NCBI GenBank assembly: GCA_049512315.1
Contig: JBEKXF010000005.1
Coordinates: 62,001-126,000, forward strand
Source: Candidatus Aminicenantales bacterium
GTDB lineage: Bacteria > Acidobacteriota > Aminicenantia > Aminicenantales > Saccharicenantaceae
Length of the DNA: 64,000 nucleotides
Reading direction: 5' to 3'
Program-made: the position numbers
Shown: positions 1-6,000 of the stretch, piece by piece
Layout: each line of letters begins with the position of its first letter
Numbering within the stretch: the stretch's first letter is position 1

Positions 1-3000
1 TTCGCCAGGGGCGGGTACATCATCAGGATGAGGCCGACCGCGATCGGGATGTTCGTCGTCCCCGACTGGAACTTGTTGATGAAGCCGACGACGACCGGCC
101 AGAAGTAGCCCAGGCCCACGCCGAAGGCCATCGCCAGGAATATCCAGAGCGTCAGGTACCGGTCCAGGAACTTGAGTCTCGCGTTTCCGGGCGTCATCGG
201 TCTCTCCTTTTCCTCGTTTTTCTCGGGTGGTAAGTCCGCGCTAAAAAGAGCTCATGCCCCGTCACGGCTTTCGGGCCGGACGATGATGTCCGGTTCAATG
301 ATGACCTCGCTCTTGACGGAATTCGCGACGAGGCTGTATTTCTGGGCCGAGGTCAGGGCCCGGAGGACGCGCTTTTCCACGGCCTCGCGCGCCGCGTTTT
401 CGGCCCCCACAATGATCCGGGGCTTCAGAACGACACGGGTGAAGATCTCGGTCCTGTCGAGCTCGATAAGCTTGGCCCCCTCGGCCCGGCATTCGTAGGA
501 CATGAGATCCAGGTGAAAGCGTTCCGCAGCCCAGATGAACATCAGCATGACGCACGTGTTGACGGCGGCGACGAACGCGTCTTCGGGGGTGAGGACTCCC
601 GCCCGACCCTGGGACTGGGGAGGAGCGGAAAAATCCATCTCGGGCCCGTTCCCCATCCGCACCCGACCATCATGTCCGCCCGTCCAGATCACGGAAGTTT
701 CATAGCTCTCTGTCCGAGCCATCGGCTTGCCTCCTCAAATAGCGGGACCGTCCCGGCGACGCGGCCGGTCGCAGGTTCATTCCAGTCCCCGCTTCCTCTT
801 CAAGAGCCGGTCCGTTTCGACGGCAATCTCCCCGGCAACGGTTTCGGCCAACCGCCTCCCTTCCTCGCTCAGCGTCCGGGCCCTGCCGAGTGTGCTGCAG
901 CCGGTTTTCTTTGCGATCGCGGTCACGACGATCGACGCGGCCGGCTTGGCGCTGTATTTTTCGGTGGCCACCGCGGCGCACCGTTTATCGCATCCATCGA
1001 CGGCGATGGTCGGATAATAGCGGGCGAACGCCCGTTCGCCCTCGCCACCCGCCAGAAATAGCGGCAGACAGAGGGTGACCGTGTCGTCAGGTCTCAATGT
1101 TTCGAGCACTTTCCGGACGGCCCTGCGCGTCACGGTGCCCTCGGGCAATTCCTCCCCCGAGCAGGAGATCAGTCCCACTTTCTTTCTCGGGAGATCAGGC
1201 ATGGCCTTCCTCCCCGCCGACCTTATCAACGATCTTTGCACCTTCATCCGCCGCCGCGCGGGCCAGCTTCAATCCGTCCTCGTTGAGATCGCACACGCCC
1301 TCGGGCTTGAGGCCGCGGTGACGGCGGAGAACGTCGAAGACGGCGACCTTGTGGATCCGGCCCGCGCCGGCGGCCTCGAGCCCCTTCGCGGCGCACTCGA
1401 GCTTACAGCCGTCGATCGCGACGGCCGTGCCGTCGGCGACTTCACGCTTTGCTTCCTTGTCGCCCAGGACAAGGAGGGCAAGGGCGACAATGTTCGTTTT
1501 TTCGGGGCGGAGGTCCTCGGCGAGGATGTAAGCTGCTTCCCGGGCCGCCGCCCCTAGGCTTTTCCCGATCCCGCTGCAAGGGACGACGGAGATCTTGCGC
1601 CGTGTTTTGCTCATCGCAGGACCTCCGCTTCCGCCTGGACCTTGGCCAAGGCCAGGTAGTCGGCCGCCGTCTTCAAGACTCGGCGAGCCGCTTCGCTATC
1701 CTCGACCTCGAGGACGGCCAGCCAGCCTTTTCCGTAGGGATCCTGGTTGACGAGCTCGGGAGCGGTCAAGAGGTTATTGTTGACTTCGACGACCTTGCCT
1801 CCCACGGGGGACGGGATGCTGAAGTTGACCTTGATCGTCTCGACGACGGCCACCTCGTCGCCCAATCGGACCTGGGTCCCCTCCTCTTTCGGCTCGGCAA
1901 AAGCGACGTCCCCGTTCCTCTGTTGCGTGAAATCGGAAAGGCCGATGCGGGCCCGCCGCTCTTCGAATTTCACCCAGATCCCGGCCTCGCTGTAATAGAG
2001 GTCGGCGGGAAAGCGGAAGCGGAATTTATCAACCGCCAGCTCCAAGGCCTTATCGCTCATCATTTCTCCTCCTCACCCTGAAGGAAGGTCTCTTCGATCC
2101 AGGCGCAGATCTCGTCGCGGCTCCTCCGGAAACAGGCCAGGATCTCCTCATCGGTCCCGGTGCAGGCCGCCGGGTCATCGAAGGCGTGGTGGATGTACTC
2201 CTTCCCGCCGAGGAAGAAGGGGCAATCCGCCTGCGAATCGTCGCAAACCATTACCACATGATCGAACTTCTGGCCCGTGAACTCGTCGATGCTCTTCGAA
2301 CGATGACCGGAAATGTCGATCCCGATCTCGGCCATGGCCTGGATCGCCCCGGGGTGCACTCTCGTGGCCATCGTCCCGCCACTCGAGGCCAGGAACGTGT
2401 TTCCATATAGGGCGTTGACCAGGCCCTCGGCCATCTGGGATCGGGCCGAGTTGTGGACGCAGATGAACAGGATCTTCTTTTTCATGGCGAACGGCCTCCT
2501 CAACCTTTAGCTCCCCTCCCCCGTTTCCAGGCCGTCCCAGAACGGCTCCCGTGCTTGAGGCGGATTTCCTCCCTCAGGCAGATATCCATCCGCTTGACAT
2601 CCCGCAGGACATCCGCCGACTCCTTGAGATCATGCCTGAGTATTGTTCGCGAAAGGGTCTCCAGGGTTTTACGGGCAGCGGGTGTAATCCGGTAGATCAT
2701 CCACCGTCCCTCGCGGACGTCCTCGACCAGGCCGGCGGTGCGCAGGGCCTTCAGCTGATGCGACAGGCACGATTGCTCCTTCTTCAGGATGAACATCAAC
2801 TCGCAGACGCACAGGTCTTTTTCCATCAGGAGCAGCACAATCCGGAGCCGCGTGGGGTCGGACAGAACCTTGAAGGTCCGGATGGCGTCTTTCACGGGCA
2901 TTGGATGACTCCCTGGGCCCATAGACATCCCCCGCAGACCGGGTAGGTGTTACCGTAGCAGTCCTCCTCGTTCTTTTCGAGCATCGTGCAGCCGCCGCAG

Positions 3001-6000
3001 ACGTGGCACGGGGAAAAATCGAAATCGCGGACTTTCTCCCGGAACCGGGCATATTCGGGCGAGTTCCAGATGTCAAAGAGGTCGCCGCTCTCGATATTGC
3101 CGAGGATGTATGCCGAGATTGTCCTCTCCAGCCCGTAGAGATATGTCCGATGGGTATGCAGAAGGCCGGCGCACGGGGTCACCTTTTCATCCCACCTAAC
3201 AAATGTGCAGCGGTCGTGGATGAACCGGCAGCGCCTTGCGTCGACGCTCAGCCGGTTTCCCATGAAAGACAGGTTTTCAAATCCCTGAAGGAGGCTGAAC
3301 ATGGCCTCTTTGGTCGTGTTGTTGACGTCCAGCCGGGGAAGATTGATCTCAGTCTTGCCGGATGCCGCGGTGAAGGTATCCAGGGTTAAGGTCTGAAGAC
3401 AGAGCATCTCCTTCTCCATCTCCGGGCTGTAGGGAAGGACGTGGCTGACCGAAACGCGACGCGCTCCTACGGTTCGGGCGAGCTTGTCGAGATCTTTGAG
3501 GTCGGCCAGATTCCGGCGAAGGAGGACGAAGGCGATCCCGAGCTCGACATGATGCGGTCCCTGGGCGTTCAGGCGGTCGAAAACCACCGGATCCATGTCG
3601 CCCGTAGGCTCATTCCAGGTGTTCCTGAGACACGTCCGGCAGCTCAGCCCGCAGCGAGAGGTGGGCTCCACGTAAACCCGGGCTAGGCTGTGGATGTCGG
3701 GCAGGACCTCGAGGCGGCCGCGGTCAAAGCGGATGTCGGCGAGCGAACCTGGGACGAGTCCCAGGCGTTTCGCGGCGGACGGAGGGACGACCAGGCTCCC
3801 GTCTTTTCGGACGCGGCGGCGGCTCTCTACGGCCTCCTTCTTCCTTCCTAAGGCCTGGACAACGGCCGCGGCCCGCTCCCCTTTTCCGAGATAGGCCAGG
3901 AGGCGATGTCCCCCGGGAACGCTCCGGCCGGACTTTTTTCCGCTGACGGGCTTGGACATATGAACATATTTTCATATATCCAACGGGGCTTGTCAAGGCC
4001 CGGAGCGCCCGTCCGCCAGGTTCAAGGGTTCCCGGCCGGCTGAGCAGACGCGGCGGACGGTCCTATTTATAGAGCTTGTAGACGCGGGAGGCGATCCGGG
4101 CGATCATCCGCTTGGCGATGACGGCGCCCGTGTCCCCCTCGGTCAGGACGCAGACCAGGACGTCCCCCCGCCCGGTGAAGATGATCCCGGCGTCGTGGCA
4201 GACTTTGTTTTCGAGGCCGGTCTTGTGGGCGACGGGGGTCTTGCGGGGAAGGTAGCGGGGGATCCGGTCATTGACTTTCTGTTCCTTGAGGACCGCCAGG
4301 CACTTCTCCGAGGCCTGCGGGCTGACGCAGCTCCGGCGGTACATCATTTCCAGGATGTCCGCCATCTCGCGCGGCGTCGTGAAGTTCTCGATACCCCTGG
4401 CCCGGGACCGAAAGTCCATCATCTTCCGCGACAGGTTCGTCCGCCCGAGCCCGAACTCTCGGAAGGTGCCGCCGAGATAATCGAACCCGAGGAGGTCGAT
4501 GAGCATATTGGCCGCGGTGTTGTCGCTGTCCGTGATCATGAGCTCGAGGAGCTTCTCGATCGTCACCGGAGTTCCGGCCGGAGCCGCCCGGAGGATGCCC
4601 GAGCCCCGGACCTTGTCCGTCCTTTTCAGGGTGAGGACCTCCTCCAGCGAGATCCGGCCCTCCTCGACCGCCTTGAAGCAGGCGGCCATGATCGGGATTT
4701 TGACCATGCTCGCCGACGGGAACGGACGGTCCTGGTTCCGGACCATGGCCCGGCCGGTCTGGAGGTCCTTGATGACGAAACCGAGCGTGCCCTGAAAATC
4801 GCGGAGGCTCCTCAGGATGTCCTTTTCGAGCTCCGCCCATTTCGCGTCCAGCGGCTCCCCGGCCGCCGCCTGGGGGATCACGTATTGGAGGGGGGCATCA
4901 ACGCCCGGCCCGGCCGGGGACGCGACCGAGGCGGAAGCAAGAAGGAGCGAGAGGGTGAGGACCGGCCACGAAGCGGATTTTCTTTTCATCGTTCGGCGCG
5001 ACGGATTCCTATCTTACCAGCACCGGCGCCCTTTTTGAAGCCCTCCGTGTGAGAGAGAGGTTGAACTCCCGGCGTGCCCCTCCTATAATCGCTGTGATGA
5101 CCTCAAAAGAAAGAATGCTCCGCGCCCTGGCCAAGGGGAAGCCCGACCGCCTGCCGGCGACCGTCCACCAGTGGCAGAAATTCCATCTGGACAACTATCT
5201 GGGCGGCATCACGGACCTCGAGGCCTTCGAAATGTTCGGCCTCGACGCCTCCATCCAATATTCCCAGGACGCGGGGCAGTTCCGGCTGGCCGGCACGGAC
5301 TCCGGCAAGTCTTCGGCCCCCGATTGGCAAGACGAGGTCGAAGTCCTCAGCGACGACCCGGACAACAGGGCCTGCCGCCACACGATCCGGACGCCCGGGG
5401 GGACGCTGACCTACGCCGCGGCCGGCAACCGGGCTACGACCTGGATCACGGAATATCTCATCAAGCGTGATGAGGACATTTTTCTGATCGCTAAGTACAT
5501 GCCCGTCCCCGGCCTCGAGCGCGCCGCGGTCAGCCGGATGTACGAAAAAGTCGGGGACAAGGGGATCCTGCGCGGCTTCGTCTGGGGCAACCAGGGCGGC
5601 TGCTGGCAGCACGCCGCCTGCCTGATGGACATCCAGGAGCTCATCCTCAAGGCCATGGACGACCCGGGCTGGGTCCACGAGCTGCTCGGGATCCTGCTCC
5701 GGAAAAAGCTCCGGTTCATCGAGACCATGAAGGGTGCCAAATTCGACCTGGTCGAAACGGGAGGAGGGTCGGCTTCGTCGACGCTCATCTCTCCGGCCCT
5801 GCACCGGGAATTCTGCCTGCCCTACGACCGCCGGATGCACGACGCCCTCCACGCCCTCGGCTTCACCGTCGCCTACCACACCTGCGGCGGGACCAGGGGC
5901 ATCGAGGAGCTGATCGTGGCCAACAGCTGCGACGCGTCCGAGACCCTGGCCCCGACCTCGATCGGCGGGAACCAGGAGCCCTGGGAGTTCAAGGAGAAGA

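Follow-up and report, generated by a model that had tools for sequence, protein, structure and literature searches.

Protein-bound lipoate is a classic target of trivalent arsenic. The systems closest to the locus described here, cited from excerpts of their sources, each resemble it in part. The Lpd/H-protein/OsmC peroxide reductase of Trichomonas vaginalis (Nyvltova 2016, via PMC5384416) and Hyphomicrobium (Hden_1299-Hden_1301; 10.64898/2026.10.01.755906) combines an H-like carrier working outside glycine cleavage with an OsmC-fold partner, Lpd being the likely donor. GcvH-L of Staphylococcus aureus is likewise a GcvH paralogue that serves as a stress-linked lipoyl carrier (PMC12440151), and LbpA of sHdr sulfur oxidation is a GcvH-like carrier accompanied by Hdr-like Fe-S proteins (PMC6067878), comparable to the HdrA-N-like gene found in some of the loci below. 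Ars operons with thiol accessories (ArsE/MTH895 thioredoxin, ArsF, ArsG) have ArsR, a Trx-type ArsC and Acr3 in common with this locus. One such operon, ArsR5-ArsP-ArsE-DGC of Pseudodesulfovibrio mercurii, includes a DGC protein noted as being of unknown function (10.1101/2022.10.17.512643).

Layout and conservation of the operon

The window, 64,000 nucleotides of DNA from a Candidatus Aminicenantales bacterium, opens within a tightly packed operon on the minus strand, to which all features below belong. The gene order is rSAM-arsR-arsC-H-DGC1-DGC2-OsmC-acr3, with intergenic spacings in that order of -10, 14, -4, -4, -8, 54 and 54 nt. The genome-wide survey's note had described a four-gene block (GcvH paralogue, two DGC proteins and an OsmC-family protein) inside an ars operon, and all of these genes are found where it had placed them, on the minus strand. 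The arsenite efflux permease gene acr3 (1..197) runs off the window, which holds its 5' end (C5 61154-62197, 347 aa; TIGR00832 462.8 bits), and arsR (2500..2901) encodes an ArsR/SmtB repressor with a CVC motif (PF01022 E 2e-18; NF033788 over cutoff). A candidate sigma70-type promoter (3952..3996, TTGACA at 3996-3991) was the single site returned by the promoter search (mean of shuffles 0.0). Its -10 region is covered by an inverted repeat with 16-nt arms that are 88% complementary (3952-3983), and the same arrangement occurs upstream of the rSAM gene in the loci of 10 relatives. Judging from sequence, the repeat is likely the ArsR operator.

The first gene (2892..3959), whose stop overlaps the arsR start, encodes a TIGR04317-like radical SAM/SPASM protein below cutoff. 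It has lost 100 codons of its core in frame near 3570, where 6 nt of microhomology mark the junction. The site is crossed by contigs from runs X1, X3 and X5, all of which lack the missing part; the deletion, already reported in the survey, is real and not an assembly error. Assignment as the tungsten-oxidoreductase maturase (TIGR04317) was rejected, as the barrel is not intact here and the score is 185, compared with 303 in an intact relative and a cutoff of 380.

The arsC gene (2060..2485) encodes a LMW-phosphatase-fold protein and predicted arsenate reductase that does not reach the TIGR02691 cutoff (111.5 bits, cutoff 174.3). The CX5R loop and two further redox cysteines are present (Cys9/81/88, in 78/78 homologues and kept in fusions). 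At the junction with the H gene (2045..2084) stop and start overlap, and the genes are fused in frame in many relatives. Among the 120 proteins listed, 39 are ArsC-H fusions and 81 DGC+H fusions; a separate listing of 120 proteins holds DGC1-DGC2 (13), DGC2-OsmC (11) and DGC2-Trx3 (5) fusions. The contig of X5, a close strain, is 20 nt shorter at this junction, and the resulting length (875-20 = 855 nt, or 284 codons plus a stop) equals that of fusion P0003, from which X5 appears to fuse arsC and H. On the H tree the fused or split state must have changed 5 times or more, and fusions P0280 and P0242 contain garbled stretches.

The H gene (1611..2063) encodes a putative lipoyl carrier (PF01597 E 1.6e-32) with the H-protein fold. 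It keeps the lipoylation lysine, as had been claimed (Lys78, codon 1832-1830), and so do 220/220 paralogues. The glutamate of the HEW motif of GcvH has a role in holding the aminomethyl-lipoyl arm. Here the motif is replaced by GIW, and the glutamate is found in 0/220 H paralogues and in 49/49 canonical GcvH rows, which were themselves chosen on the His and Trp of the motif. The NCBIfam GcvH cutoffs are narrowly missed (NF002270, 115.3 < 117; TIGR00527, 109.1 < 115.85), the DGC-H fusion P0033 passes both, and neither gcvT nor gcvP occurs among the 97 DGC loci tallied. On cutoffs, glutamate and linkage an identity as the glycine-cleavage GcvH was rejected, fold and lysine being shared. To label the genes of the block 'glycine cleavage H' and 'organic hydroperoxide reductase' would be misleading. 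The survey had located the true gcvH elsewhere, and it lies in a gcvT-gcvH-gcvP cluster on C45; lipA (C23) and a lipoate-ligase-family gene (C8) are present, also in agreement with the survey, and the Lpd gene is on C1. H paralogues are acidic (median core pI 4.4, compared with 4.4 for GcvH), and the protein of the window has no Cys, so that LbpA, which has a pair of terminal Cys and is basic on the side facing the ligase, was rejected. The GcvH-L/SirTM operon was rejected as well (TIGR03077 50.6 vs cutoff 144), all eight genes here being otherwise assigned, with no sirtuin, macrodomain or LplA2.

The two DGC proteins (PF08859) are encoded by DGC1 (1195..1614; E 4.3e-13) and DGC2 (777..1202; E 2.7e-16). 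The earlier description of two subtypes with three invariant Cys holds for DGC1 (Cys 13/70/74, 99/99 each) but not for DGC2, which has four (Cys 14/45/71/75, conserved in 82, 82, 83 and 83 of 83). DGC2 of the window is without the ~100-aa C-terminal extension present in other lineages, and its structure model has a pLDDT of 90.4. As in the survey, the fold search gave no informative match; MvhD and HdrA-N domains are absent from the top 50 matches, and comparison with these Fe-S domains gives hhalign probabilities of <=3%, no better than controls, with the GC motif aligned.

The product of the last gene of the block (252..722; E 1.1e-8) belongs to the OsmC family, as the survey had stated, and has the OsmC fold (Foldseek E 1.6e-12, TM 0.76 to 2onf), but is atypical. 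Cys57 at the peroxidatic position and Glu47 at the catalytic position are kept in 120/120, and there is an extra conserved Cys78. The resolving Cys of Ohr/OsmC proteins, ~60-70 residues after the first, is replaced by Ser130 (Ser in 120/120), which aligns with the Cys of 2d7v and 2onf. His17 (His in 118/120) aligns with the catalytic Arg of Ohr, as defined in an excerpt of PMC5384416, and no conserved Arg is present in the OsmC-type loop. Lacking both resolving Cys and Ohr Arg, this atypical OsmC falls outside the canonical peroxidases. Three loci (L014, L016 and L017) retain, next to it, an OsmC with the normal two Cys.

Distribution and module types

The pattern reported earlier for 80 loci was reproduced with different counts. 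DGC is present in 25/80 loci (31 in the survey), with arsR/arsC/acr3 in 22/25 of these and an OsmC match in 22/25. DGC-free GcvH loci are indeed without ars genes (reference genes in 0/55), but the survey's description of those it showed as glycine-cleavage operons needs correcting, since gcvT/gcvP is in the flank of only 18/55 and many are gcvH-lpd pairs. Loci chosen by the DGC2 profile alone hold H and ars genes in 7/7 cases, and further DGC2-profile loci hold H in 9/9 and arsR or more in 7/9. In well-flanked DGC2 loci the H paralogue occurs in 61/61, a non-regulatory ars gene in 57/61, Trx3 and acr3 in 52/61 each and arsC in 32/61.

These loci carry one of two exclusive module types, with the atypical OsmC (type I, 53/61) or with an HdrA-N-like protein (E 0.014 to HdrA in phmmer), a ferredoxin and DGC3 (type II, 8/61). 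The conserved four-gene block of the survey is real, but the H+DGC1+DGC2 core also has a second version. No more than 4/61 loci have an adjacent Lpd, all with the atypical OsmC and three in one H subclade. An Lpd match above cutoff immediately precedes H in L143, which also holds a lipoate-ligase-like gene below cutoff, and in L168; Lpd is likewise matched in L239 and L241. Since acr3 is present in 47 of 61 relatives and the module in only 16, the module is accessory. Its spread is patchy (9/301, 3/251 and 7/301 genomes), and in one relative arsC is followed immediately by acr3, with no module between them. Ars neighbours are nevertheless kept across bacteria and archaea despite changing gene order, and relatives add ArsE/F/G, ArsM, ArsP and ArsA/D.

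Possible functions of the module

The best-supported reading is the one that the survey had suggested, a lipoyl-dithiol relay, although it comes from gene context and the four-gene block is only one version. At a probability of about 45%, the module is a thiol relay that depends on lipoate, is controlled by ArsR and provides anaerobes with the reducing power to detoxify arsenic. This reading is based on the ars context, the invariant lipoyl Lys, Lpd and LplA neighbours in some loci, and the five kinds of fusion. As(III) would lift ArsR off its operator, the whole operon would be made, and the housekeeping ligase and LipA would lipoylate Lys78 of H, which would have lost its aminomethyl-binding surface and act only as a swinging dithiol. 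Lpd and NADH would keep lipoyl-H reduced in type I, as here, and ferredoxin, the HdrA-N-like Fe-S protein and DGC3 in type II. The DGC pair, whose role is a guess, and the atypical OsmC would promote thiol-disulfide exchange of the lipoyl arm with its acceptors; one active Cys with a His/Glu pair may suffice in the latter because the lipoyl dithiol would resolve the mixed disulfide. Accepting partners would be the disulfide of ArsC, a protein fused to H in this lineage, as well as an ArsE/MTH895-type small thioredoxin in most other genomes. Acr3 would export the As(III).

Fe-S electron carriers in the 8/61 loci without the atypical OsmC favour the relay, as do excerpts in which OsmC/Ohr proteins accept electrons from lipoylated proteins (PMC8945050, PMC5384416). 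The acidic H also fits the acidic surface that, in an excerpt, canonical lipoate ligases prefer (10.64898/2026.10.01.755906); acidic ligase-contact positions, mapped by offset from the Lys, are kept at 3/5 in the window's H. Against the relay, arsC is missing within 7 kb in 29/61 loci, an adjacent Lpd is rare, the module is accessory, and the two types are a single split on the tree and hence one evolutionary event. L102 has H and the atypical OsmC without a DGC match in ~3 kb downstream. TrxR/Trx are present in this genome (Trx3 has no match there), which already gives ArsC a conventional reductant. Where genes overlap, a fusion can be neutral or an assembly error, and ArsC is said in an excerpt to fuse readily (PMC6205960).

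The main rival, which is rather unlikely, is that the dihydrolipoyl arm captures As(III) or methylarsenite and hands it off. The arsenic would be the ArsC product or be taken off poisoned lipoyl enzymes, the third thiol would be Cys57 of the atypical OsmC in trans (type I) or the carrier's own Cys29 (type II), and three-Cys DGC1 would take over the arsenic for delivery to Acr3. As(III) is bound trigonally by three thiols, DGC1 has exactly three invariant Cys, and the atypical OsmC keeps Cys57 though its peroxidase residues are lost. Carriers with Cys29 are never paired with it (65 non-Cys loci with it, 4 Cys loci and 1 non-Cys locus without), and L233, L237 and L238 are three more Cys29 loci lacking it; however, this pattern amounts to a single split between clades, and L235 is an exception to it. 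Acr3 is a steadier neighbour than arsC, and an ArsC-H fusion would place the arm beside freshly made As(III), but the presence of dedicated donors of electrons (Lpd, ferredoxin) points to redox turnover. An excerpt of PMC6205960 has arsenite binding vicinal thiols and lipoic acid, yet calls the binding to lipoic acid weak.

It is improbable that the module acts, through a reduction or desulfuration that depends on the lipoyl group, on arsenic species without a known enzyme (thioarsenates or methylarsenate, from habitats that are sulfidic and anoxic), yielding As(III) to be exported. The case is purely circumstantial: the metagenomes that best contain this DNA come from peat (four rows possibly the source, X5 not so marked), arsC is often missing, and the type II HdrA-N-like protein recalls lipoyl-LbpA/sHdr sulfur chemistry, but the carrier is acidic and without the LbpA cysteines, and no rhodanese or sulfur-transfer gene was noticed in a non-exhaustive look at recurring neighbours. 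Thioarsenate resistance should exist, according to an excerpt that calls it still unverified (PMC6205960).

An ordinary lipoyl-dependent peroxidase (Lpd-H-OsmC), recruited against arsenic-caused oxidative stress with DGC as an accessory, is quite improbable. The Trichomonas L-H-OsmC precedent (PMC5384416, excerpt), the Hyphomicrobium Hden_1299/Hden_1301 proteins, 'probably' donor to OsmC (10.64898/2026.10.01.755906, excerpt), the confirmed OsmC fold and a CMD/AhpD-like gene in L013 agree with it, and Cys78 might serve as an alternative resolving Cys. The substitutions of resolving Cys and Arg argue against it, as neither Cys is dispensable in an Ohr that was tested (PMC5384416, excerpt). The two-Cys OsmC beside the atypical one implies different jobs, and 8/61 loci are without the latter while DGC2 and H persist. 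Finally, a response to a different signal of the ArsR/SmtB type (other metals, sulfane sulfur) or mere carriage in stress islands, with no arsenic role, is very improbable: patchy spread, the relative with arsC joined to acr3, 4/61 loci without a non-regulatory ars gene and the decay of the rSAM gene in the same operon would allow it, but the module is flanked by arsC and acr3, its stops and starts overlap, it is found fused to ArsC and its ars neighbours persist in changing gene orders, and in Pseudodesulfovibrio arsenic induces an ars operon with a single DGC gene (10.1101/2022.10.17.512643, excerpt).

Comparison with known systems

The carrier set in an ars operon and the ArsC-carrier fusions of close relatives suggest that lipoic acid, normally arsenic's victim, is used here to help detoxify arsenic. 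If so, anaerobic bacteria and archaea living in peat and sediments would have an arm of arsenic resistance that has gone unrecognised, lipoylated H proteins would gain a further function, and the DGC domain (PF08859) would have its first role open to testing. Thanks to the natural ArsC-H fusion, a single small soluble protein together with Lpd and NADH would be enough for a direct test. Tentatively, the lipoyl arm itself might carry As(III), or strip sulfur from thioarsenate, between ArsC, the DGC pair and Acr3, with the third ligand supplied in one lineage by a de-peroxidased OsmC and in another by a Cys of the carrier itself; lipoate would then have a new use and the DGC domain its first function.

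A literature search found no description of the module. Ars reviews searched by term contained no lipoyl carrier, DGC pair or atypical OsmC, and ArsC-H is absent from the ArsC fusions described in the excerpts of these reviews. The carrier of the window differs from LbpA in having no shdr genes beside it, and from GcvH-L, whose operon in the cited excerpt has LplA2 and the SirTM ADP-ribosyltransferase, neither of which is seen here. Compared with the Lpd/H/OsmC reductase, the OsmC protein is without resolving Cys and Arg, two DGC proteins separate the partners, the genes belong to an ars operon, and the module also has a type that is entirely without OsmC.

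The ars operon and its shortened radical SAM gene

The ars operon occupies window positions 1–3959 and consists of eight minus-strand genes, encoding a radical SAM (rSAM)/SPASM protein, ArsR, ArsC, a GcvH-like protein (the carrier, or H), two DGC proteins (PF08859; DGC1 and DGC2), an OsmC-family protein (OsmC*) and the start of Acr3. Neighboring genes overlap at four of the seven junctions, and the remaining gaps are 14, 54 and 54 nt. A sigma70-like promoter lies 5' of the operon; a scan of 400 nt gave no other (mean for shuffled sequence 0.0). The -10 region of this promoter is covered by an inverted repeat with 16-nt arms. 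The same combination is found 5' of the rSAM gene in the loci of 10 relatives, and was not found at rSAM in relatives' loci where that gene is not the first. Directly upstream of the promoter is a class A beta-lactamase-family gene (4063–4989, minus strand; PF13354, E 6.7e-67), whose position is shared in some relatives, and divergent from it is a gene for a URO-D family protein (5097–6212, plus strand).

The rSAM gene, described in the genome-wide survey's note as having lost part of its core, lacks 100 core codons in frame, and the join shows a microhomology of 6 nt. Contigs from sequencing runs X1 and X3, and from the more distant X5, cross this join without the missing part. The deletion is therefore real, and an assembly artefact is rejected as its source. 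The gene is probably dead; its overlap with arsR is retained and the genes 3' of it are intact.

Elsewhere, the genome holds a separate gcvT-H-P set, lipA and a lipoate-ligase-family gene, in agreement with the same note, and it also encodes Lpd and 2-oxoacid dehydrogenase E1/E2. TrxR/Trx, a second arsC (contig C59, 3577–4068, outside the window) and arsM (contig C5, 14450–15532, likewise outside; this contig also has a small AbrB-like gene) are located apart from the operon. A small ArsE/MTH895-type thioredoxin (Trx3) was not found in this genome, and the listed holders of this DNA include no RNA dataset.

Distribution and two types of module

A search with the carrier gave 80 genome loci, of which 25 have DGC; arsR, arsC or acr3 occur at 22 of these 25. 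The 55 DGC-free loci contain no ars reference genes; gcvT/gcvP occur at 18 and lpd at many. The earlier claim that ars genes mostly accompany the carrier where DGC is present and are absent where it is not is thus borne out. In metagenomes DGC is present at 73 of 80 loci, and six of the DGC-free ones end near the carrier. One locus (L102), with the order acr3-Trx3-H-OsmC* and no DGC match downstream, is a real-looking exception to the core of H and DGC.

A DGC2-profile search, run to avoid selection on the carrier, gave matches in 9 of 301 genomes of the same phylum and in 3 of 251 and 7 of 301 genomes of two other phyla; plasmids gave no DGC2 match. All seven new loci fetched from the same phylum have H and ars genes. 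In the other phyla H is present at nine of nine fetched loci and arsR or more at seven, the remaining two being at contig ends. Among 61 relatives, including this genome, the OsmC* gene is found in 16, acr3 in 47 and lipA in 58. The last fails as a discriminator, as 14 of the 16 module genomes carry it. The order H-DGC1-DGC2-OsmC* with acr3 nearby is kept at all 15 other module loci.

Pooling the loci whose DGC2 has 3 kb or more of flank on either side, and removing three duplicates, left 61. Many of these are kin, so the counts are not independent: H occurs at 61, DGC1 (by best label) at 58, arsR at 55, acr3 and Trx3 at 52 each, arsC at 32, rSAM at 22, ArsM at 15, Lpd at 4 and a non-regulatory ars gene of some kind at 57. 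Present at 22 of the 61, and being also shortened in L122 and L132, rSAM is unlikely to be a module member. In those two loci it persists 5' of the carrier as a short remnant with only its two ends left, an independent decay. In a 319-nt contig present in two runs, arsC abuts acr3 directly; the module is therefore gained or lost as a unit.

Several other genes occur around the module. The pair of arsM and the AbrB-like gene adjoins it in L006 and L096, and a stand-alone MtrA-family gene (PF04208) follows OsmC*-Trx3 in L012 (8353–9048), L107 and L126. A CMD/AhpD-like gene lies near it in L013 (4861–5223), with ORFs that look similar by eye in L124 and L130. The end of one module-bearing ars cluster (L064, 11853–12428) has a gene with a CdhD match, which its motif suggests is hgcA-like.

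Two types can be distinguished. OsmC* is present at 53 of the pooled loci (type I), while an HdrA-N-like protein, a ferredoxin and DGC3 take its place at eight (type II); none has both or neither. Each type forms a single carrier clade, so the split is one event. Seven of the eight type II carriers have a Cys at position 29, and the four loci with adjacent Lpd all belong to type I (Lpd in L231, a weak 161-residue match, was dropped). One archaeal genome (G351; L023 and L236) carries both types, the OsmC* copy of L236 being in two pieces.

The carrier, its fusions and the DGC pair

Candidatus Aminicenantes supplies most of the carrier's closest named relatives. In trees, the paralogues group together to the exclusion of GcvH (FastTree support 0.997 for a subsample and 0.755 in a second tree). 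The lipoylation lysine, previously noted as kept, is Lys78; all 220 paralogue rows have it and 219 have Glu75. None of the 220 has the HEW glutamate of GcvH, which has a role in glycine cleavage, as against all 49 canonical rows. The paralogues equal GcvH in acidity, a property tied to recognition by canonical ligases in the accessible part of one report (10.64898/2026.10.01.755906). Because the lysine is conserved and the acidity is as in GcvH, lipoylation at Lys78 is plausible on sequence grounds. At L143 (5566–11108), Lpd precedes the carrier, and Trx3 is followed by an MbdU-like protein (below cutoff) and a lipoate-ligase-like gene, neighbors that would constitute a private lipoylation kit.

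A search found 245 longer relatives of the carrier, the best 120 listed being 39 ArsC-H and 81 DGC+H fusions. DGC comes first in 80 of the latter, the named ones from Asgard archaea, and the order is H-DGC1 in one. The ArsC-H fusions retain the three ArsC cysteines; according to the available part of a review, ArsC fuses readily (PMC6205960), which advises caution in reading them. A tree of 66 carrier rows, of which 42 are fused, 17 split and 7 without adjacent arsC (other rows excluded), requires at least five changes of the fused/split label, and a single origin is found in 0 of 200 bootstrap trees; recombination within the operon could be an alternative source of these changes. The sister of the window's carrier is a fusion (P0003, 94% identical), and 15 relative genomes divide into 2 fused, 9 split and 4 without adjacent arsC. 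The window has a match of about 96–97% identity in a 6.4-kb contig from run X5, which is shorter by 20 nt at 2045–2084, exactly the split form (875 nt) minus a 284-residue fusion (855 nt). From this length difference we infer a probable arsC-H fusion in the X5 strain. The best 120 of 128 longer DGC2 relatives include DGC1-DGC2 (13), DGC2-OsmC* (11), DGC2-Trx3 (5) and DGC-H (1), although some linkers look like frameshift read-through.

Three cysteines are invariant in DGC1 and four in DGC2, so the survey's report of two subtypes with three invariant cysteines holds for the first and not the second. DGC2 is modelled with confidence (pLDDT 90.4). Its fold is as uninformative as stated earlier: searches return generic alpha/beta folds only, the best being the uncharacterised 3pu6 (Z 8.9, rmsd 2.5, 109 aligned). 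Foldseek gave nothing at E <= 0.001 and a PDB profile search a single match (E 0.4). Motifs suggest that DGC may be an MvhD/HdrA-N-type Fe-S domain; in a profile comparison the similarity to MvhD/HdrA-N is not significant and no better than controls. The TGA flagged in one DGC2 match is absent from the aligned domain, which leaves no evidence of selenocysteine. A C-terminal extension of DGC2 (~100 aa, beginning CxCGS) resembles a small stand-alone gene (L012, 7300–7569; L009, 10866–11135), and neither has a Pfam or NCBIfam match.

Possible functions and related systems

We regard this as a real, conserved ars accessory module, undescribed so far; no description was found in the openly readable literature searched. 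Past anatomy and gene context, the steps of a mechanism are what we infer. A lipoyl-dependent reducing relay ranks first, with a probability of roughly 45%, because both types have or can reach an electron source for the lipoyl group, and because the carrier is found fused to ArsC, and DGC2 to the small thioredoxin. Capture and hand-off of As(III) comes second and is distinctly less probable, although the two are not mutually exclusive. That the lipoyl arm itself handles arsenic is possible, if rather doubtful. New chemistry on thioarsenate or methylarsenate is unlikely.

Slightly less likely again is a plain peroxidase. The OsmC* model adopts the OsmC fold, and comparison with Ohr/OsmC-like structures indicates that the first Cys and the Glu are retained. 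All 120 top homologues have Ser at the resolving position, 118 of them have His where Ohr has Arg, and a different cysteine, Cys78, is invariant; these 120 are the best matches of a profile made with sequences of this kind and describe the subfamily, not all OsmC. In the consulted portion of one study, a tested Ohr needs both of its cysteines, and the peroxidase subfamilies are defined by Arg and Glu (PMC5384416). An ordinary two-Cys OsmC is retained just 5' of the carrier in three loci. A module without any arsenic role is the least probable reading of all.

Elements of the module have precedents, as far as the accessible parts of the sources go. A lipoyl-H protein with OsmC is known in Trichomonas (from the discussion in PMC5384416) and has been proposed for Hyphomicrobium (10.64898/2026.10.01.755906). 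A lone DGC gene has been noted within an arsenic-induced ars operon (10.1101/2022.10.17.512643), whereas the operon here has two. Among known systems, the module is best placed with the lipoyl-carrier thiol relays.
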